This document shows positions 31,411-48,555 of a DNA stretch of 64,000 nucleotides, one piece after another. Position numbers and translations under genes: made by a program. Location: assembly GCA_026991395.1 (NCBI GenBank), contig JALXBP010000117.1, positions 29,458 to 93,457 of the forward strand. The letters run 5' to 3'. The stretch is from Anaerolineae bacterium. Lineage in GTDB: Bacteria; Chloroflexota; Anaerolineae; B4-G1; SLSP01. The notes beneath the pieces are model-generated. The model was not told where the DNA came from. It saw only the letters and a list, made by a program, of their open reading frames with translations, and did no database searches. Every line of letters starts with the position of its first letter. Positions within the stretch are counted from its first letter, which is position 1.

Positions 31411-34400
31411 ATGCAAGAAAGCGCCGGGGAGCCTGTCCCTCAGCTCGATGTGCGGATGTTTGGCGGTCTGGAGATCACCTACCGCGAGGAGGAGACGTCG
31501 CCGCCACATCCTCTGACGCTGCCGCCCACGGCCAAGTCGCAATCGCTGCTGGCGTACCTCATTTTGCACAGCGAACCGCCTCCCACGAGGGAGCGCCTGG
31601 CAACGCTCTTCTGGGGCGACCGGCCGCCGCGCCGGGCACGCCGCTCCCTTTCGACCGCCCTCTGGCACATCCGCCGTTGCTGCCCGCTCAATCCGTTGCA
31701 GAGCGAAGGTCAAACCATCCGCTTCGCCTTTCCGGGGAAGCTCCACCTCGACGTGGCGGCCTTCGAGCTTTTGACCGCTGCCGATGCCTCCCTCGCCCAA
31801 CTGGAAGAGGGGGTCGCGCTCTACCGGGGCGATTTTCTGGAGGGTCTGTACGATGACTGGATCATCCTCCTCCGCTACCGCTGGCAATCGCGCTATCTCG
31901 ATGCCCTCCTTCGCCTGATGCAGCTACAGGAGGCGGGGGGCGAGGATCGGAAGGCGCTCCAGACGGCCCTGCGCCTGCTCGAACTGGACGAGCTTTCGGA
32001 AGCGGCGTGCCAGACGGCGCTGCGGACCTATGCGCGGCTGGGACAGCGGGAACCCGCCCTCGAACTCTACCGCCGCTTCGAAGCGCGCCTGCAGGAGGCG
32101 TTGGGCATCCCGCCCTCGGAGGAAACGGTCGCCCTCTACCGCCGGGTGCTGGAAAGTGGTCCGCAGGAGACCTCCGCCACGCCGGGACCCCTCCTCTGGG
32201 CCAAAACTGAGCACCGACGGGAGCAGCACGGCACGGCTGCCCCCTTCGTCGGGCGCGAGGCGGAGATGGACTTCTGGAGACAGTTCTGGCCGCACGCCAT
32301 GGCCGGGGGAGAACGCATCCTCTTCGTTGCCGGAGAAGCCGGTGTGGGCAAGAGCCGCCTGGTCGAACAGTTCGCCGCTTACGTCGCGCGGCGGGGAGGC
32401 TACGTCGCGACGGGGCACTGCTCCGCCTTCGAGCAGGCCCAGCCCTACGCCCCCCTCACCGAATGGCTCCAGGAGGCGCTGATGCGGAGCGGCCCATACG
32501 CCCTGGAAGCCCTTTCGCCGTGGGAACTGGGCAATCTGGCCCTGCTCCTCCCCGAACTGCGTTCGCCCTCGCTTCCCACGCCGCCGACCTTCACGGAGGC
32601 GGAGCAGCGGCACCTCTTCCAGGCCGCGCTCCACCTCCTGCTGACCATCGCGCAGCGCAGGCCGATGCTCCTCATCGCGGAGGACCTGCACTGGGCGCAC
32701 GATTCGTGGCTGGCCTGGCTGCGCTTCCTCGCCCGCCGCAGCGGACAGGCGCGGCTGGTCGTCGTCGGCACCTACCGCCAGGAGGAAGTCCCCACCAGAC
32801 ACCCCCTCGCCCATCTCGTCGTGGAACTTGTGAGGGCCGGGGCGGCAACCCGGCTCGATCTGCAGCCGCTTTCCCTGCGGGCATTGGGCCAATGGTTCCC
32901 CGACGCCCCCTTCTCCTTCCTCCACCAACTCCACCGCCACACGGAGGGCAACCCCTTCTTCATCCTGGAGACCTTGCGGGCGTTGCAGGAGCGGTACGGC
33001 CAACGCGCGACCGCGCAACCGTGGCAGCTCGCCGCCGTCGAACGGATGCCCATTCCGGAGACGGTACGGCAGGCGATCCGGCTCCGCCGCGATCGACTCG
33101 GCCCGGAGGCCCGCCGTGCGCTGGAGGTCGCCGCCGTCATCGGGCGCACCCTCGATCTGGAGCTGTGGCAGCGGGCCTGGGGCCGCCCGGAGGGGGACCT
33201 CCTCGCGGTGCTGGACGGCTTGCTGCGTCGGCAATGGCTGGTCGAGGGGCGCGGCACCTTCGCCGAGGATTACGAGTTCGCCCATCATCTGGGCCGCGAG
33301 ACGCTCTACGCCGACCTGCCGGCAGAGCGACGCCGCACCCTCCATCGCCGCGTCGCCGAGGCGATCGAGCAGATGGCCACCCCGGATCACCCCCGCAGCG
33401 CGGAGATCGCCCTCCATTACCTCCGCGCGGAAGCGTGGGAGCAGGCCTGGCCCCACCTCCTGCAGGCCGGCGATCAGGCGGTAGGCATGGCGGCCACCGA
33501 CGAGGCGCTGGCCTGCTACCGTCAGGCGCAGAGCGTCCATCGCCATCTGCCCGAGGAACGACGGCGGCCCCTGGACGGGGCGGTACTGGAGCGGAGGATC
33601 GGCGAGGTTTACTTCCGTCGCGGGGAGTACGAGCGGGCACGGAAGCATCTGTTGCGGGCCTTGCGGATGCTGGGGCACCCCTTCCCGACCGAGCCGTGGC
33701 GGATTTGGCAGGGCGTGGGAGCGGCGTTGCTGCGTCAGTTCGGACGGCGGCTTTTCGCCGTGAGGCAGCGTGAACGCAACAAGCCGCAGGATGCAGAGGC
33801 CGCCGCCGTGAAAGAGGAAGTCCTCGCCTACACCTCCTTGGGCTGGATCGATAGTCTGCAAGGGCGGTACGCCCCTTACCTCCTCGTTGCGCTGCGGGCG
33901 CTCAACGCCTCGGAAAACGGGGCCTTCCCGCAAGGCGAAGCCTATGCCGCGACGGCCTTGGGCATCGCCTGCGACTTCCTCCCCGCCTTTCGCCTGGCGA
34001 CCTACTTCCACCGGCGGGCGGCAGCGCAGACCCCCTTCCTCGTCCGCCCGTCGGCACTGGGCTTCGTCCATTTCGGGATGGCCTACCACGCCTACCTCCT
34101 GGCCGACGAATCGCAGGCGCTGGAGGAGGCCCGTCTGGCCGCCGACGCCTACCGCCGCGCCGGAGACCCGCATCGCTGGGCGCTGGCCGTCCTCATCCAG
34201 GGCTACATCCACGGCTACCGCGGCGAACTGGAGCGCGTCGAAACGCTCGCCGCCGAGCTTTGGGAGACGGGCGAAAGCATGCGCGATCCCAGCGCCTGCT
34301 GCGCGGCGGAGTCCCTGCGCGGTCGCATCGCCCGCTGGGCGGGAGGCTGTGCCGAGGCGGCGGAGCACTTCCGCGCAGCCGCTGATTTCGCCGCCCAGGT

Positions 34401-34920
34401 GCCCGATCATATGAGCCGCGTGGAAAACCTGGGGCAACTGGCCCGCTGTCTGGCCCGCCAGGGAGCATCGGAGGCCGCTGAAGAGGCCGTCCGCCAGGGA
34501 ATGCGCATAGCTCGAGAGGAAGATGTGCGCGGCGATTCCCTCGCCTACTTCCTCCACGGCGCGGCGGAAGCCTCCTTGCTGCTGGCCGATCACTCGGTCG
34601 AGTGCCGCCACAGGCTGCGGCGGCTCTTCCGCGCCGCCCACCGAGCCACACGGGCCTTCCGTCCTCTCCTCCCCGCCCAGCTCCGCCTGGAGGGCATGCT
34701 CGCCTGGCGGACGGGGCATCCGCGCCGGGCGCGGCGGCTGTGGCAGCGGAGCCTGCTCGCCGCCCGGCACCTCCACCATCCCCTCGACTGGGGCGCGACG
34801 GCCTTCGAGATGGGGCACTGCTTGGGCCAACCCGTCCTGATGGGACAGGGCGAGGCCCGCCTGTCGGAAGCAGGCGCAGAAGGCGAATTGCACCATCTCC
34901 GGCACTTCTGCACCGCCTAA
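31411..34920 (+). CDS. AfsR/SARP-family transcriptional regulator: OmpR-type wHTH plus BTAD plus NB-ARC/AAA ATPase plus TPR
   Basis: 1169 aa; SD AAGGTGG then ATG. N-term QLDVRMFGGLEITYRE...SLLAYLILH...RERLATLFWGD (wHTH), BTAD (GDFLEGLYDDWIILLRYRWQSRYLDALLRL), P-loop FVAGEAGVGKSRLV, long TPR-like helical C-terminus. Confidence 0.8.
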   Translation: MQESAGEPVPQLDVRMFGGLEITYREEETSPPHPLTLPPTAKSQSLLAYLILHSEPPPTRERLATLFWGDRPPRRARRSLSTALWHIRRCCPLNPLQSEGQTIRFAFPGKLHLDVAAFELLTAADASLAQLEEGVALYRGDFLEGLYDDWIILLRYRWQSRYLDALLRLMQLQEAGGEDRKALQTALRLLELDELSEAACQTALRTYARLGQREPALELYRRFEARLQEALGIPPSEETVALYRRVLESGPQETSATPGPLLWAKTEHRREQHGTAAPFVGREAEMDFWRQFWPHAMAGGERILFVAGEAGVGKSRLVEQFAAYVARRGGYVATGHCSAFEQAQPYAPLTEWLQEALMRSGPYALEALSPWELGNLALLLPELRSPSLPTPPTFTEAEQRHLFQAALHLLLTIAQRRPMLLIAEDLHWAHDSWLAWLRFLARRSGQARLVVVGTYRQEEVPTRHPLAHLVVELVRAGAATRLDLQPLSLRALGQWFPDAPFSFLHQLHRHTEGNPFFILETLRALQERYGQRATAQPWQLAAVERMPIPETVRQAIRLRRDRLGPEARRALEVAAVIGRTLDLELWQRAWGRPEGDLLAVLDGLLRRQWLVEGRGTFAEDYEFAHHLGRETLYADLPAERRRTLHRRVAEAIEQMATPDHPRSAEIALHYLRAEAWEQAWPHLLQAGDQAVGMAATDEALACYRQAQSVHRHLPEERRRPLDGAVLERRIGEVYFRRGEYERARKHLLRALRMLGHPFPTEPWRIWQGVGAALLRQFGRRLFAVRQRERNKPQDAEAAAVKEEVLAYTSLGWIDSLQGRYAPYLLVALRALNASENGAFPQGEAYAATALGIACDFLPAFRLATYFHRRAAAQTPFLVRPSALGFVHFGMAYHAYLLADESQALEEARLAADAYRRAGDPHRWALAVLIQGYIHGYRGELERVETLAAELWETGESMRDPSACCAAESLRGRIARWAGGCAEAAEHFRAAADFAAQVPDHMSRVENLGQLARCLARQGASEAAEEAVRQGMRIAREEDVRGDSLAYFLHGAAEASLLLADHSVECRHRLRRLFRAAHRATRAFRPLLPAQLRLEGMLAWRTGHPRRARRLWQRSLLAARHLHHPLDWGATAFEMGHCLGQPVLMGQGEARLSEAGAEGELHHLRHFCTA

Positions 34921-35003
34921 TCCCCCCTTTTTGGCACTTTTTTGACACCTCCTCCCTACAATCGAAGCGATCGATTCCCTTTCACCGTGTGAGGAGGTGG
35001 ACT

Positions 35004-35252
35004 GTGCCATTCCACCACAACACCTTCGTCGTCCGTCTCTGGTGGGCCGAGTCACACTCCGCCGACGGACGGTCGGCTCGACGGTGGTACGGGCGAATCG
35101 AGCATGTCCAGAGCGGCGAAGGAGCCGAGTTTCACGATGTGCATGCACTGCTGCGCTTCATCGAATCATTCACCGGCGCGATTTTCGGCCCGGAAGGCGA
35201 GGGGGAAGGAGGTGATGTGGACATAGCAAGCGTCGATACAGACAAGGAGTGA
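35004..35252 (+). CDS. small acidic hypothetical protein (82 aa)
   Basis: GTG 35004 preceded by GAGGAGGTGG. VPFHHNTFVVRLWWAESHSADGRSARRWYGRIEHVQSGEGAEFHDVHALLRFIESFTGAIFGPEGEGEGGDVDIASVDTDKE. Embedded in the shadow ORF 34602..35252 in the track. Confidence 0.45.
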   Translation: MPFHHNTFVVRLWWAESHSADGRSARRWYGRIEHVQSGEGAEFHDVHALLRFIESFTGAIFGPEGEGEGGDVDIASVDTDKE

Positions 35253-35297
35253 ATTCGATTTGTCATCCAATCAGCATCCATCGAAAAGGAGGTTACG

Positions 35298-37607
35298 ATG
35301 CGACGTACAAAGACTTTGTTCGTAGTGGCAGCGATGGGCATCGCAGTTCTGCTCCTCATCGCCACCGGCTTTAGCGTACGGGCCGGCTCGCAGGGAAGCG
35401 CCCCCCGCGCTCCCGCGGCGGCCTCGACGATGGTCTCCGGCACACTCTCCTATCAGGGGCAGCTTCTGGATAGCAACGGCCAGCCGGTGAGCGGGACGGA
35501 GACGATGACCTTCACCCTCTACGCGGCGGCGACGGGCGGCGATCCGCTGTGGCAGACGAGCCAATCGGTCGCCGTCGAGAACGGTCTCTTCGACGTGGTT
35601 CTGGACGTGGACCCCTCGCTCTTCGACGGGCGGGCACTCTGGCTCGGCGTTCAGCTTTCCGGCGAAGCGGAGATGACCCCGCGCCAGCCCCTGATGCCCG
35701 CCCCCTACGCGCTCTCCCTGCGGCCCGGCGCGGTGATCAGCGGCAGCATGGAGCGCACGATCAGCACGGGCGTGCTGTACGTCGTCAACAGCGATGGCTC
35801 ACCGAACGGCGGATACGCCATCGTGGGGCGGAACTACAGCACGGACCCTTGGCGACCGGCCATCTACGGCGAGAACAACGGCCAAAGTGCAGGCATCTAC
35901 GGACGCAGCGACGGGTGGCACGCCGTCGTCGGCTGGAACGAGAGCGACGATTGGGCGGCGGTGTGGGGGCATAACGTCGGCGGTGGCCGGGGCATCTTCG
36001 GGGAAAATATCGGCGCGGGGGCCGGCGGCTACTTCACCAGCACCGCCGGGACCGGGCTGGTCGGGGAGAGCGGCGGCGGCGTCGGCATCGGCGTGAAGGG
36101 AAGCGGCCCGGCCGTCGGCGTCTACGGCGAGAGCGAAGATGGCTTCGGCCTCTCCGGCTTCAGCACCAACGACGTCGGCATCCACGGGACGAGCATCAAC
36201 GGCGCGGCGGGCTTCTTCACCAGCACCAACGGCCTCGGTGTGGAGGCCCACGCACGCGGGACGCAGGTCGCCGTGTGGGGAGAGAACGCCGAAACCGGTT
36301 ACGCGGGCTATTTCACCAGCACCGCAGGCACCGGTCTGGCCGGAGAGAGCGGCGGCGGGGTCGGCGTCGGCGTGGTGGGCCGCGGACCGGTCGTCGGGGT
36401 GTACGGCGAGAGCGAGGACGGCTTCGGCCTCTTCGGTCAGAGTACCATCGACGCCGGGGTTCGCGGCACGAGCGCCGGTGGGCCGGGCGGCCAGTTTACC
36501 AGCACCAATGGAGCCGGTATCTACGCGGCAAGCATCAACAGCACGGCCGGCTATTTCACCAGCACCAACGGGGCAGGTGTGCATGCCAACTCGCAGGCCG
36601 ACCGGGTCGCCGTCGTCGGCGAGAACCGCGGGATCGGAACGGGCGGCTACTTCACCAGCACGCAGGGGCTGGGCCTGGCCGCCTCCAGCGCCGACGGCCA
36701 CGCCTTCGCCACCTTGGGCCACTCCCTCATCGACGGCCCCAATCCGATGCAGGTGGCACTGCTGCGCTGGTATCCCGTCATCAGCACGACGCATGCCATC
36801 CCCGTCGGCAATGAGCCGCATGGCATCGCCTTCGACGGGGCCAATATGTGGGTAGCCAATACCTATGATCACAATGTCAGCGTGCTGCGGGCGAACAACG
36901 GCGAACAGGTGATGACCTGCACTACCGGCCTCTTCCCGGACAGCATCGCCTTCGACGGGGTGAATATGTGGGTGGCTAACAGAAGCGCTGGCACAGTCAG
37001 CGTCCTGCGGTCCAGCGACTGTGCCCACGTGATGACCCCCACCGTAGGGAATCTGCCCACACACCTTGCCTTCGACGGTAGCAGAATGTGGGTGGTGAAC
37101 AACGGCAGCGCAAGCGTCAGCGTCCTCGATGCCAGCGACGGGAGTCACGTGATGACCGTCTCCGTCGGGGTTGGCCCGATCGGGATCGCCTTCGACGGGA
37201 TGAATATGTGGGTGGCGAACGCGGCCTCGGGCACGGTCAGCGTCATCAGCCCCGACGGCACCGTGGTGCAAACCGTCAACGTGGGGCACAAGCCCGTCGC
37301 CGTCGCCTTCGACGGGGCGGCTATGTGGGTCACGAACATGGACGACGACACGGTCACCATCATCCGCGCCGCCGACGGCCAGGTGCTGGAGACCATCCCC
37401 GCAGGCGACGGCCCCTCGTCCCTCGCCTTCGACGGGGCCAACATGTGGGTGGGCAACGAACTGGAGGACTCGGTGAGCATCTTCCGCGTCGTAGACCGCC
37501 ATCTGGTAGCCACTATCCCGGTCGGCGACCGCCCCCTCGGGCTTGCCTTCGACGGAGCCAACATATGGGTCACCAACGCCAACGACGACACTGTGATGAA
37601 GCGGTGA
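35298..37607 (+). CDS. secreted fibre-like protein: signal peptide, conserved fibre N-domain, Gly-rich beta-roll-like repeat shaft, C-terminal YVTN-type beta-propeller
   Basis: 769 aa; SD AAAGGAGG. Signal MRRTKTLFVVAAMGIAVLLLIATGFSVRA. N-domain LSYQGQLLDSNGQPVSGTETMTFTLYAAATGGDPLWQTSQSVAVENGLFDVVLD. About 46-aa Gly-rich repeats GYFTSTxGxGLxGESGGGVGxGVxGxGPxVGVYGESEDGFGL. Seven or eight 40-aa repeats IAFDGANMWVAN...TVSVL (YVTN beta-propeller). Confidence 0.8.
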   Translation: MRRTKTLFVVAAMGIAVLLLIATGFSVRAGSQGSAPRAPAAASTMVSGTLSYQGQLLDSNGQPVSGTETMTFTLYAAATGGDPLWQTSQSVAVENGLFDVVLDVDPSLFDGRALWLGVQLSGEAEMTPRQPLMPAPYALSLRPGAVISGSMERTISTGVLYVVNSDGSPNGGYAIVGRNYSTDPWRPAIYGENNGQSAGIYGRSDGWHAVVGWNESDDWAAVWGHNVGGGRGIFGENIGAGAGGYFTSTAGTGLVGESGGGVGIGVKGSGPAVGVYGESEDGFGLSGFSTNDVGIHGTSINGAAGFFTSTNGLGVEAHARGTQVAVWGENAETGYAGYFTSTAGTGLAGESGGGVGVGVVGRGPVVGVYGESEDGFGLFGQSTIDAGVRGTSAGGPGGQFTSTNGAGIYAASINSTAGYFTSTNGAGVHANSQADRVAVVGENRGIGTGGYFTSTQGLGLAASSADGHAFATLGHSLIDGPNPMQVALLRWYPVISTTHAIPVGNEPHGIAFDGANMWVANTYDHNVSVLRANNGEQVMTCTTGLFPDSIAFDGVNMWVANRSAGTVSVLRSSDCAHVMTPTVGNLPTHLAFDGSRMWVVNNGSASVSVLDASDGSHVMTVSVGVGPIGIAFDGMNMWVANAASGTVSVISPDGTVVQTVNVGHKPVAVAFDGAAMWVTNMDDDTVTIIRAADGQVLETIPAGDGPSSLAFDGANMWVGNELEDSVSIFRVVDRHLVATIPVGDRPLGLAFDGANIWVTNANDDTVMKR
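36027..36584 (+). repeat. tandem direct duplication, 2 x 279 bp (93 codons), near-identical, inside the fibre-like gene
   Basis: 36027-36168 (ggctacttcaccagcaccgccggg...ggcttcggcctctccggcttcagcacc) versus 36306-36447 (ggctatttcaccagcaccgcaggc...ggcttcggcctcttcggtcagagtacc) align with few mismatches at 279-bp offset. Confidence 0.7.
36790..37607 (+). repeat. 120-bp periodic coding repeats (gccttcgacgg(g)-N-aatatgtgggt) encoding beta-propeller blades
   Basis: Motif recurs at about 36829, 36949, 37069, 37189, 37309, 37429, 37549. Confidence 0.6.
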
Positions 37608-37618
37608 GGAGGCGGGCG

Positions 37619-37903
37619 ATGAAACGGACTGTTGCCTTGCTCGGCCTGGCCCTGCTCATCGCCGCGCTGCCCGTCCTGGCGCAAAGCTCGGCGGGACACG
37701 ATCTCTCCTGGCATCTCATCGGGAGCAGCAACGGGCGGATGATGAGCGCCGGTCATCAACTGCGGGGATCGGTGGGGCAGCCGCTCATCGCCACCTCCAC
37801 CGATGCCCACCACCGGCTTCACAGCGGCTTCTGGCAATCGGGGATCATCGCCGCAGGCGGCCACTACACCATCTACTTGCCTCTCGTCGCCCGCAACTAT
37901 TGA
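37619..37903 (+). CDS. small secreted hypothetical protein (94 aa)
   Basis: SD GAGGAGG 6 nt upstream, ATG 37619, 11 nt after the upstream stop. Signal peptide MKRTVALLGLALLIAALPVLAQSSAG; mature part HDLSWHLIGSSNGRMMSAGHQLRGSVGQPLIATSTDAHHRLHSGFWQSGIIAAGGHYTIYLPLVARNY. Only the C-terminal part of track ORF 37088..37903. Confidence 0.6.
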   Translation: MKRTVALLGLALLIAALPVLAQSSAGHDLSWHLIGSSNGRMMSAGHQLRGSVGQPLIATSTDAHHRLHSGFWQSGIIAAGGHYTIYLPLVARNY

Positions 37904-37910
37904 TCCGCAA

Positions 37911-37940
37911 GGGGAGGAGGCTGCGTTTCGCCTCCTCCCC
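37911..37940 (+). terminator. hairpin GGGGAGGAGGC-N8-GCCTCCTCCCC after the small secreted gene
   Basis: 11-bp perfect stem; no U tract. Confidence 0.4.
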
Positions 37941-38016
37941 GCCGCTTCCCCGCCCCGACGGCGAAAGCGGCAACTTCCGGCGCGCGGCAGGCCCGCTCCC
38001 GCGTGCCGCCTCTCTC

Positions 38017-38044
38017 TTGACCCGCACCCCGCCTCCTTTACAAT
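38017..38044 (+). promoter_or_regulatory. sigma70-type promoter for miaB (TTGACC-16-TACAAT), transcript probably leaderless
   Basis: -35 38017-38022, -10 38039-38044; the ATG at 38052 is 7 nt after the -10 and has no SD. Confidence 0.5.
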
Positions 38045-46696: not shown

Positions 46697-46770
46697 CATC
46701 TTCACCCGCAGTCACACCCGCCGGAGGGCTTTTCGTCAGCTCCGCCCATCCGGTGAGCACAAAAGGCACT

Positions 46771-48555
46771 ATGAAAAATCTCTCATTCGCATTCACACTC
46801 CTCACGCTCGCGCTGCTGCTGAGCGGATGCCGCAATGCTGCCCCGCCCACAACCGCCACCGTCCAACCCGTTGCGACACACATCCCCGCGCCCGAGCCGA
46901 CGACTCGCACCGACGGGGCTCTCCCTCTCGCCCTTCCCGCCTCCGGCAGTTTGCAAAACCCCGCATGGTCGCCCGACAGCGGCAAACTGCTCTTCACGCG
47001 CTTCGCCAACGGCTACAACACCGGCCCCGCCGACTTGCTCACCTTCGACCTGACGACCGAACTCACCCGCACCCTGGTTTCCGATGGCAGCGACAACGTC
47101 AATTTGCCCGGCTCTGCCTGGAACCGGGTAACGGGCTACATCGTCTTTGCATCCTCGCGCGGCCCTCACGACGAGATTTACGCCATCTACGCCGACGGAC
47201 GAGCCAATGACGAATGGCAAGTCACCGACCGAGATGACCGCGCCGCTTACGAAGCCTCTTTTTCGCCAGACGGCGATTGGGTCGTTTTCGAATCCCACCC
47301 GCTGGAGGTGGAAGGCAACGGCATCATCACCCAATACAAAATCGACGGCAGCCAGCCCTATCGAGCACTCACGGCTGCCGGCGACGATTGCCGCCAACCC
47401 AATTGGTCGCCCGCCGGAGACCTGATCGTGTATCAAAAGTTCACCGACAATCAGTGGGATTTGTGGACGATGACCCCATCCGGCAGCAATCATCGGAAAA
47501 TCACGACCGGTCCCGGCGACAAGACCGACGCCTCTTTCTCCCCCGACGGGAAATGGATCGTTTACAGTTCGGACGAAGGCAAACTCGACTACGCCAACCT
47601 CTTCATCATCCCCTCCGGCGGCGGCGAGCCCGTCCGCCTCACCACCCATAGCGGCTACGACGGCGCACCTTCGTGGTCGCCGGATGGCCGCCGCATTGCG
47701 TTCGAGTCCGCCCCCGGCGACCCTGAGGAAGGCAACGGCACATCCCTCTGGCAGATTACCGTCCCACAACAATTCGCCCCTCGTCTGCTCTTCGACGGCG
47801 GTTTCGAGACGGGCGACACCACCCAGTGGGCAGGTATCGATTGGAACCTGGAACGCCCGCTCGATGAGCAGTTGCAAATCGTCACGGATACCGTCCGGCA
47901 AGGCATGTATGCCGTCAAGACCATCGTCCACGATGGCGATGAATTCCTGGATACCGGCGGCGAGCGCATCCAGTTCGAAAGCCCCGGCCCTCGCGAACAC
48001 GAAGGCGACGACTACTGGTACGCCTGGTCAACGCTCTTCCCCGAAGAGTGGCAGCCACCCAACGAGTGGCTCTTAATCGCAGACTGGCACGCCACCTATC
48101 CCGACGTCTGCCAGCCCCTGCAATTCGAACTGGACAACGCCAACGCGCTTTCCGTCCGAATTCTGACGGGAGACGTAACCGGCTATGACTGTTTCGACGG
48201 CCCCGGCACCGCCCTGCAAAAAACCGCCGTCATCGTTCCGCACATCACGCTCGGCGAATGGCACGACTTCGTCATCCACGTCGAATGGACGACATCCGGG
48301 AACGGCTCGATCGAAGTTTGGCACAAACTGGAAAGCGATGCCGGATTCGCCAAAGTGCTGGATTGGCACGATATCCCCACCTTGCAATATCAGGGCGATC
48401 CCGCCCAACCGGACACCCCCTACTTCATCCTGGCACATTACCGGGACGAGAGCAACACTCACACCTCTGTGCTCTATCACGACGGATTTCGGATGGCCCT
48501 GAGCGCGGAAAATCTGGCAGAAGGCGATCTGTACGTCTTGACAATGCCGCATTAG
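46771..48555 (+). CDS. lipoprotein: TolB-like PD40 beta-propeller plus C-terminal polysaccharide-lyase-like (concanavalin-fold) domain
   Basis: ATG 46771 (AAAAGG upstream); lipobox LLLSGC. PD40 repeats (ASFSPDGDWVVFES, PNWSPAGDLIVYQ, ASFSPDGKWIVYSS, PSWSPDGRRIAFES). C-terminal FDGGFETGDTTQW...DYWYAWSTLFPEEW...WHDFVIHVEWTTSGNGSIEVWH...YFILAHYRD resembles the heparin-lyase-I-type 'Polysacc_lyase' fold. Confidence 0.75.
   Translation: MKNLSFAFTLLTLALLLSGCRNAAPPTTATVQPVATHIPAPEPTTRTDGALPLALPASGSLQNPAWSPDSGKLLFTRFANGYNTGPADLLTFDLTTELTRTLVSDGSDNVNLPGSAWNRVTGYIVFASSRGPHDEIYAIYADGRANDEWQVTDRDDRAAYEASFSPDGDWVVFESHPLEVEGNGIITQYKIDGSQPYRALTAAGDDCRQPNWSPAGDLIVYQKFTDNQWDLWTMTPSGSNHRKITTGPGDKTDASFSPDGKWIVYSSDEGKLDYANLFIIPSGGGEPVRLTTHSGYDGAPSWSPDGRRIAFESAPGDPEEGNGTSLWQITVPQQFAPRLLFDGGFETGDTTQWAGIDWNLERPLDEQLQIVTDTVRQGMYAVKTIVHDGDEFLDTGGERIQFESPGPREHEGDDYWYAWSTLFPEEWQPPNEWLLIADWHATYPDVCQPLQFELDNANALSVRILTGDVTGYDCFDGPGTALQKTAVIVPHITLGEWHDFVIHVEWTTSGNGSIEVWHKLESDAGFAKVLDWHDIPTLQYQGDPAQPDTPYFILAHYRDESNTHTSVLYHDGFRMALSAENLAEGDLYVLTMPH

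Follow-up and report, generated by a model that had tools for sequence, protein, structure and literature searches.

A MAT-like mosaic surface protein with a propeller tip and its small YLP-box partner in an Anaerolineae genome: a candidate two-gene module for a cell-surface fibre

In the phages lambda (Stf/Tfa) and T4 (gp37/gp38), a fibre gene is directly followed by a gene for an assembly or accessory protein. In bacteria, to our knowledge, MAT-type (mosaic adhesive trimer) fibres have so far been known experimentally only from a predatory proteobacterium, Bdellovibrio bacteriovorus, whose prey-recognition fibres they are. Their layout, as described in PMC10769870, comprises a signal peptide, a beta-rich domain that is conserved and ~130 amino acids (aa) long, a trimeric stalk and exchangeable tips, of which some carry an S74 domain and others lack one, and the surface partner of the MAT N-domain is stated there to be unknown (PMC10769870; Caulton et al. 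2024). The present report deals with a locus of an Anaerolineae bacterium (Chloroflexota) contained in a stretch of 64,000 nucleotides (contig JALXBP010000117.1 of assembly GCA_026991395.1; G+C ~65%), hereafter called the window, to which all coordinates given without a locus label refer. Two neighbouring genes, at 35298-37607 and 37619-37903, encode a secreted protein of 769 aa, in which a beta-rich N-domain, a Gly-rich shaft and a beta-propeller follow one another, and a secreted protein of 94 aa ending in a YLP-box motif. On balance, we favour reading this pair as a module of two genes that provides the cell surface with a fibre for recognition or adhesion, and it is quite likely that the pair represents a family of MAT-like mosaic surface proteins with an obligate partner.

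The elements of the two genes, including the open reading frames (ORFs) themselves, are as follows:

35298-37607, + strand: 769-aa fibre ORF, with AAGGAGG upstream
35298-35384, + strand: signal peptide at the start of the 769-aa protein (residues 1-29), with cleavage predicted after VRA; from reading of the sequence
35439-35702, + strand: beta-sandwich N-domain, MAT-N-like (residues 48-135), with a predicted local distance difference test (pLDDT) of ~95 in the AlphaFold2 (AF2) model
35703-35732, + strand: neck PYALSLRPGA (residues 136-145), which alignments of 11, 70 and 121 sequences show to be invariant or almost so
35733-36779, + strand: Gly-rich shaft (residues 146-494), from autocorrelation; its length varies between strains
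36780-37607, + strand: seven-bladed YVTN beta-propeller tip (residues 495-769) with the stop codon, from TIGR02276 and AF2
37619-37903, + strand: 94-aa secreted partner (signal peptide 1-21, three-hairpin GFW module at ~25-73, YLP-box C-terminus), with GAGGAGG upstream, beginning right at the end of the preceding stop codon

The secreted and modular design that the initial annotation had read in the 769-aa protein (N-domain, repeat shaft and propeller tip) was supported. An AxA-type cleavage site is conserved among relatives (alignment A1), and the AF2 model places a helix at residues 5-24. The N-domain is real and highly conserved, with Y52, Q53, G54, P63, F72, W115, R129 and Q130 nearly invariant, as is the neck sequence that follows it. 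Pfam gave no match for the N-domain, the shaft or the 94-aa protein, nor for the LQ-type tip and the 82-aa protein described below; sequence searches of the PDB, made with the N-terminal half of the protein and with a relative of the LQ type, gave no match, and a BFVD search returned weak generic beta-sandwich matches and nothing better. The exact 769-aa sequence was absent from the protein collection searched, and the best relative among the GTDB representatives has 57% identity.

The shaft contains 24% Gly. The Gly-rich repeats described initially were confirmed, and the 46-aa period assigned to them was not: the strongest period in the autocorrelation is 93 aa (z 11.6, two copies), with sub-units of ~10 and 31 aa, the sub-unit type being G-hydrophobic-x-G-x-S-x-x-G-x. 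In an AF2 model of the N-terminal fragment, residues 140-240 have a pLDDT of ~88 and no secondary structure according to DSSP. This model is compatible with the extended chain, free of intrachain hydrogen bonds, that is expected of one subunit in an intertwined oligomer, and may reflect such an arrangement.

The tip scored 86.7 bits with the YVTN profile TIGR02276 (cut-off 27.85) and was modelled by AF2 with a pLDDT of ~97. The propeller, for which seven or eight blades had been proposed, has seven, corresponding to seven AFDG repeats of ~40 aa each and to a tandem period of 120 nucleotides (nt) in the DNA. Its top PDB match by Foldseek is 1l0q (E 1.6e-22, 32% identity), from the surface-layer (S-layer) protein of Methanosarcina mazei, which likewise has an extracellular seven-bladed propeller of ~40-aa YVTN repeats (TIGR02276); in that protein, however, PKD domains follow the propeller, whereas here the propeller is the C-terminal tip on a MAT-like N-domain and shaft. 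Relatives are named 'YncE family protein' by NCBI. Membership of the YncE family (NF052280) was rejected, the score being 25.9 bits against an equivalog cut-off of 400, and the name reflects the propeller fold only. Lactonase and SGL matches were weak and remained under the Pfam gathering thresholds.

A word-indexed search yielded 467 protein matches, and the pattern PYA[LF]SLRPGA alone retrieved 209 relatives in GTDB species genomes. These 209 loci belong almost all to metagenome-assembled genomes (MAGs) of Chloroflexota, namely Anaerolineae, Thermoflexales/Thermoflexia, Caldilineaceae and Ardenticatenaceae, with a minority in MAGs of Planctomycetota, Methanolinea and ANME-1. Across the family the N-terminal half is the constant and defining part, and it is the C-terminal tip that changes from member to member: of the 102 family ORFs located in the fetched loci (labelled L below), 47 carry an LQ domain of ~150 aa, 15 a propeller and 40 other tips, one of which matches a PHROG tail protein (2.5e-19).

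Two or three family genes were found in tandem at L011, L014, L031, L041, L067, L072, L076, L083 and L001/L006, with a partner gene after each of them in some arrays and a single partner after the array in others; this suggests that paralogous fibres differing in their tips have multiplied locally. Outside Chloroflexota, family genes lie in contigs binned as Methanolinea (L021, L067), ANME-1 (L024, L030) and Planctomycetota (L078). L030 and L078 also hold partner-like genes, the product of the former having ~200 extra residues and no YLP-box. These archaeal and Planctomycetota members could be due to horizontal transfer or to mis-binning.

The relative L086 (GCA_054005895.1) shares with the window a block of ~94% nt identity over its first ~4.9 kb and 85% over the 3' part, which allowed the fibre genes to be compared (window 35298-37607 with L086 3649-5892). 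In the N-domain there is a single aa change in 103 codons, with a ratio of nonsynonymous to synonymous divergence (dN/dS) of 0.03 and a dS of 0.15, as against a dN of 0.11-0.27 and a dS of 0.3-0.5 in the shaft and propeller. The shaft also contains an indel of 22 aa, and the propeller substitutions are clustered in two loops per blade. The dS of the shaft and tip exceeds that of residues 48-240 (0.07-0.15) by ~2-7 times, and such unevenness along the gene points to recombination, gene conversion or mosaicism. To judge from these sequences, the base is conserved, while the distal part is diversifying and probably recombining.

As regards the relation to MAT fibres, NF053851 (Bdello_MAT_N) is the sole NCBIfam match of the isolated N-domain (E 0.0053, 16.6 bits, profile positions 10-72 of 162), as well as the most frequent NCBIfam match in the family (20 of 70 members at E <= 0.01, the best at 3e-6). 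None of these 70 members was reported above the curated cut-off of 60 bits, and since its score lies below that cut-off the 769-aa protein is not filed as a MAT family member; membership of the Bdellovibrio MAT subfamily was accordingly rejected. What stands of the widely conserved fibre N-domain initially proposed is that the only curated match is a MAT-fibre N-domain, at a sub-threshold score.

The design of the protein nevertheless resembles that of MAT fibres as set out in PMC10769870, with the N-domain directly after the signal peptide, a long repetitive stalk and a swappable tip. The beta-rich domain follows the signal peptide in the window protein (signal 1-29, sandwich 48-135, neck to 145), and diverse, exchangeable C-terminal tips stand on a constant scaffold, as seen in the 102 ORFs and in the uneven dS and dN with respect to L086. 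Moreover, the N-domain is in both cases devoid of close PDB homologues, the recurrent sub-threshold profile match covers the initial ~60 residues of the N-domain of MAT fibres, and the window protein has no S74 domain, like the NS74 subgroup of MAT fibres. On the other hand, the host is here a member of the Chloroflexota, the shaft is made of Gly-rich units of ~10 aa, an array not documented as a beta-helix or a coiled stalk, the tip of the window protein is a YVTN propeller, and trimerisation is proposed here by analogy. A further difference is the near-obligatory small YLP-box partner, an equivalent of which was not found by a term search in passages of PMC10769870, a result that covers these passages and not the MAT loci themselves. 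Taken together, the 769-aa protein probably works like a MAT-type fibre, of which it would be a distant homologue; by analogy with MAT, the chances that it is a trimeric fibre appear evenly balanced.

The 94-aa protein, which had been regarded from the outset as part of a unit with the fibre, is a genuine conserved partner. Its N-terminus is a hydrophobic, signal-like segment with an AxA-type site (sequence, alignment A1), and its end, IYLPLVARNY (residues 85-94, nt 37871-37900), highlighted as HYTIYLPLVARNY in the initial annotation, is the YLP-box motif of NCBIfam. A profile built from three sequences retrieved 9,536 cluster representatives when the limit was set at E <= 1e-3; with E <= 1e-10 there were 1,753. 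The members are mostly 90-105 aa long and consist of a signal peptide, a module of ~50 aa with the pattern YDLSW..GGGG..S..Y.L.GT.GQP..G..S..Y.L..GFW, a short linker and the C-terminal motif [YF]LP[LV][VIL].[RK], located 0-4 residues from the end. When the fetched loci were scanned with custom hidden Markov models, a partner homologue was detected within 0-90 nt on the same strand, 3' of 70 of the 89 evaluable family genes and beside any tip class. Further, the divergence of the partner correlates with that of the N-domain (Mantel r 0.72, permutation maximum 0.16), the tip class adding only -0.017; the partner therefore tracks the N-domain and not the tip, which argues against a tip-specific chaperone. 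At L004 (5773-6164), the partner gene that follows P0050 is broken across two frames, owing to a frameshift or a sequencing error.

The C-terminus of the 94-aa protein matched NF053834 (ultrashort_CTERM) at 12.8-13.3 bits (cut-off 10), the motif occupying the last residues of a secreted protein as expected of this model, and NF050076 (sort_motif_YLP) at 13.2-14.1 bits, just under the cut-off of 15. The motif is labelled 'YLP-box putative sorting motif' in NCBIfam; a literature search on the YLP-box and on YLPLV-type strings found nothing relevant, and we know of no processing enzyme for it. In the fetched loci the YLP-box occurs at the extreme C-terminus of 69 ORFs, as against ~5 expected, and 14 of these encode large, unrelated proteins without a GFW module. 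The YLP-box is thus a general tag. Like the motifs of the LPXTG/sortase, PEP-CTERM/exosortase and PGF-CTERM systems, it is a short C-terminal motif borne by many otherwise unrelated secreted proteins; unlike them, it is 'ultrashort', and neither a transmembrane helix nor a basic tail follows it. Beside P0050, a 672-aa parallel beta-helix protein (L004 6655-8673) ends in FVYLPLVARNH and has no GFW module.

In some partners the YLP-box is replaced by dockerin-like calcium-binding repeats (L028 6639-7046, L032 3833-4240 and L075 4864-5436). P0127 and P0193 are further partner-type proteins with such repeats in place of the YLP-box. Dockerin-type partners imply the existence of cohesin-type scaffolds in some Chloroflexota. 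In other proteins (L051, L082, P0212, P0224), passenger domains are added to the GFW module and the YLP-box. Finally, a single ORF of L074 (4491-6293) joins a GFW module, a hydrophobic helix followed by RRK, a second hydrophobic segment and a complete fibre with an N-domain and an LQ-type tip; a search for GFW/N-domain fusions found this case only. Since dockerins and membrane helices are attachment devices, their substitution for the YLP-box suggests, at the level of sequence, that the C-terminus of the partner serves to attach it. The GFW module, being retained in all versions and encoded beside the fibre, would in turn engage the fibre, and we propose that it does so through the conserved N-domain and neck. 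That the 94-aa protein is specifically the anchor of the fibre is a tentative idea, to which we would give less than even credence.

The features bordering on the pair are the following:

31411-34920, + strand: 1169-aa BTAD + AAA_16 + TPR (SARP/STAND-type) transcriptional regulator, from Pfam
35004-35252, + strand: 82-aa ORF, starting at a GTG codon, with GAGGAGG 5 nt upstream of it
37911-37940, + strand: GC-rich hairpin with an 11-bp stem and an 8-nt loop, 8 nt 3' of the stop codon of the 94-aa ORF

The three ORFs of the initial annotation (82, 769 and 94 aa, in this order on the same strand) were all recovered at their positions. The stop codon of the 769-aa gene and the start of the 94-aa gene are separated by an 11-nt gap that contains the Shine-Dalgarno sequence. 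The hairpin lies in a segment (37895-38020) with a predicted RNA folding energy of -67.3 kcal/mol (z -4.45 with respect to shuffled sequences) and is the probable end of the transcription unit. The two genes are considered a two-gene operon on the basis of this gap, of the hairpin at the 3' side and of a synteny break at the same point. Of the single unit of three genes suggested at first, the 769-aa/94-aa pair is strongly conserved, whereas the 82-aa ORF goes with the regulator upstream. A sigma-70 scan revealed no promoter 5' of the 82-aa gene or of the 769-aa gene, and the string TGGCAC-N5-TTGA, 5' of the 82-aa ORF, matches a sigma-54 site imperfectly.

The gene 3' of the 94-aa ORF encodes a MiaB-type radical-SAM enzyme and has a promoter-like site at 38017-38044; the neighbourhood consists of chromosomal housekeeping genes (enolase, ROK kinase, FeoB, MiaB, RpoB). 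L086 is collinear with the window over 31645-37940, at the identities given above, and the similarity stops exactly at the hairpin. Beyond it, MiaB follows in the window; in the relatives, its place is taken by phosphoglucomutase and an SBP_bac_5 protein, encoded on the opposite strand. The rearrangement boundary coincides with the end of the module. Farther on in the window, between rpoB and an M24 peptidase gene, 46753-48555 encodes a 600-aa protein with PD40 (WD40-like) propeller repeats and a polysaccharide lyase domain.

The Pfam assignments of the regulator (BTAD 2.3e-17, 64 bits; AAA_16 1.9e-24, 87 bits; TPR_12 3.8e-9, 37 bits) all lie above the cut-offs. The 82-aa protein is cytoplasmic, with the motifs FVVRLWW and W.GRIEHVQSGEG and an acidic tail, and has 29 homologues, those named by source all coming from Chloroflexota MAGs, with the common motifs FVVRFWWE and WRGRIEHVQSGEG; no Pfam or NCBIfam model exists for this regulator-linked small protein. 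The homologues are 67-84 aa long and were located directly after a BTAD-AAA_16-TPR gene of ~1,100-1,180 aa in every context examined (the window, L086, L093, L095, L088 and L089). At L086, L093, L095 and L089 the regulator precedes both the small gene and a fibre pair, the fibre of L089 having a different tip and being followed by a small partner, while at L088 the small gene is followed by ABM and polyketide-cyclase-like genes and by no fibre. Among the 85 other loci scanned (window excluded), only 3 have a homologue of the 82-aa protein 5' of the fibre gene. Being rare at other fibre loci and always placed after the regulator, the 82-aa protein is a companion of the regulator; the fibre chaperone that it was initially thought to be is contradicted by its presence beside fibre genes only together with the BTAD-AAA-TPR regulator, and also at the fibre-less L088.

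The regulator and its companion probably control expression of the fibre pair in this lineage. The idea that the regulator belongs to the module universally was rejected, as BTAD regulators adjoin only ~6-8 of the loci examined. A T-rich element, TTTTTTGACACC (34940-34952), lies 5' of the small gene and is conserved in all four aligned loci (window, L086, L088, L089), ending in TTGACACC. In the window, TACAAT lies 9 nt 3' of TTTTTTGACACC, too close for a standard sigma-70 promoter; the element may be a -35 element or a binding site of the regulator.

What the analysis establishes is the anatomy of the domains, the family, the swapping of tips, the conservation of the gene pair and the partner variants that have another module in place of the YLP-box. 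Oligomeric state, surface location, ligand, binding of the partner, anchoring through the YLP-box and regulation are all points that we infer, and the following scheme is offered in that sense. Both the fibre and the partner would be exported through Sec. Since cleavage of its signal peptide is predicted, the fibre would need other means of staying on the cell. Its N-terminal beta-sandwich and PYALSLRPGA neck would form the cell-proximal attachment end, to which the GFW module of the partner would bind, the YLP-box securing the fibre-partner complex at the envelope. As a spacer that projects the tip, the Gly-rich shaft, whose length varies, would probably form an oligomeric and most likely trimeric intertwined stalk, and the propeller would be an exchangeable tip whose ligand would be borne by a substrate or by another cell. 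The STAND-type SARP regulator upstream would probably govern expression of the pair.

Several observations weigh against this scheme. In the full-length monomer model, residues 236-493 have a pLDDT below 50, so that it is unreliable over most of the shaft; the window N-domain is far under the MAT-N cut-off (16.6 against 60 bits); and the propeller has its best PDB match in a domain of an S-layer protein, so that the 769-aa protein could belong to a lattice and not be a fibre. With respect to the partner, ~19 of the 89 evaluable family genes have no detectable one adjacent, linkage and shared phylogeny alone could give the co-divergence with the N-domain, and the in-frame fusion was seen only once, in a MAG. 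Moreover, we know of no experimentally shown function for the YLP-box. The match to the Methanosarcina S-layer YVTN propeller 1l0q, at 32% identity, is also the starting point of an unlikely alternative, in which the 769-aa protein is a structural part of an S-layer or sheath, or else a soluble protein that binds or catalyses in the manner of YncE, and its Gly-rich region a mere linker. The naming of the relatives and the weak lactonase and SGL matches agree with it; yet the YncE, lactonase and SGL scores all fall short of their thresholds, the propeller accounts for only 275 of the 769 residues, most relatives have unrelated domains in its place, and it is the N-terminal half that is conserved and defines the family.

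Two other alternatives concern the 94-aa protein. An assembly chaperone or tip accessory of the Tfa/gp38 kind, acting on the C-terminal tip, would fit its immediate downstream position and tight coupling, which mirror the fibre/chaperone pairs of lambda and T4, where a conserved proximal end, an exchangeable tip and a small gene immediately downstream are likewise found, and one tip class of the family is homologous to phage tail proteins. This possibility appears improbable, because the partner is encoded beside all tip classes and diverges with the N-domain, has its own signal peptide, and bears a tag that is common to unrelated large secreted proteins and is swapped for a dockerin or a membrane helix in variants. 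In PHROG the 94-aa partner had no match, and none of the three window proteins had a meaningful one; an IMG/VR scan detected no viral relatives of the fibre. Unlike the phage pairs, the locus is chromosomal, amid housekeeping genes, and its partner is secreted, generally tagged and independent of tip type. A prophage or tail-fibre origin of the locus was rejected for want of IMG/VR relatives, and membership of the phage tail fibre plus Tfa-type chaperone systems on the same ground, together with the PHROG result and the enolase, FeoB, MiaB and RpoB neighbours. Alternatively, the 94-aa protein might be a pilin-like subunit that polymerises by inserting its YLP strand into the GFW module of the next subunit, with the 769-aa protein as tip adhesin. 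Its minimal plan (signal peptide, beta module of ~50 aa, short hydrophobic C-terminal strand), the very large size of its family and the adhesin-like protein encoded next door are in keeping with this idea, for which the donor-strand pili assembled without dedicated machinery in bacteria of the Candidate Phyla Radiation (CPR) provide a precedent (10.64898/2026.03.03.709456). We nonetheless regard it as very improbable, given that GFW module and YLP-box occur independently of each other (14 YLP-box proteins without GFW; GFW with dockerin) and that no chaperone-like gene is present at the locus. The match to the CPR Pam pilus protein PamT (NF058579; 12.1 bits, E 0.092, cut-off 240) was noise, and this assignment was rejected.

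With regard to the preferred reading, a two-gene fibre module, its significance lies in the existence of a large Chloroflexota family that follows the design logic of MAT fibres, i.e. a constant base with swappable tips, and that is distinguished by a near-obligatory partner gene. The partner is a concrete candidate for the mounting of the fibre on the cell and provides a functional handle on the uncharacterised YLP-box. A more far-reaching proposal, which we put forward as doubtful, is that the ~95-aa proteins with a GFW module and a YLP-box are dedicated anchors or adaptors of MAT-type fibres, and that the YLP-box is a new surface-display signal devoid of a transmembrane segment. If true, it would answer for Chloroflexota what the invariant N-domain of MAT-type fibres binds, and thousands of proteins of Chloroflexota and related lineages would rely on the YLP-box for their display. 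Chloroflexota are filament and granule formers in wastewater, sediment and hot-spring communities, and the family constitutes a natural library of tip domains for adhesion specificity in their uncultured members.

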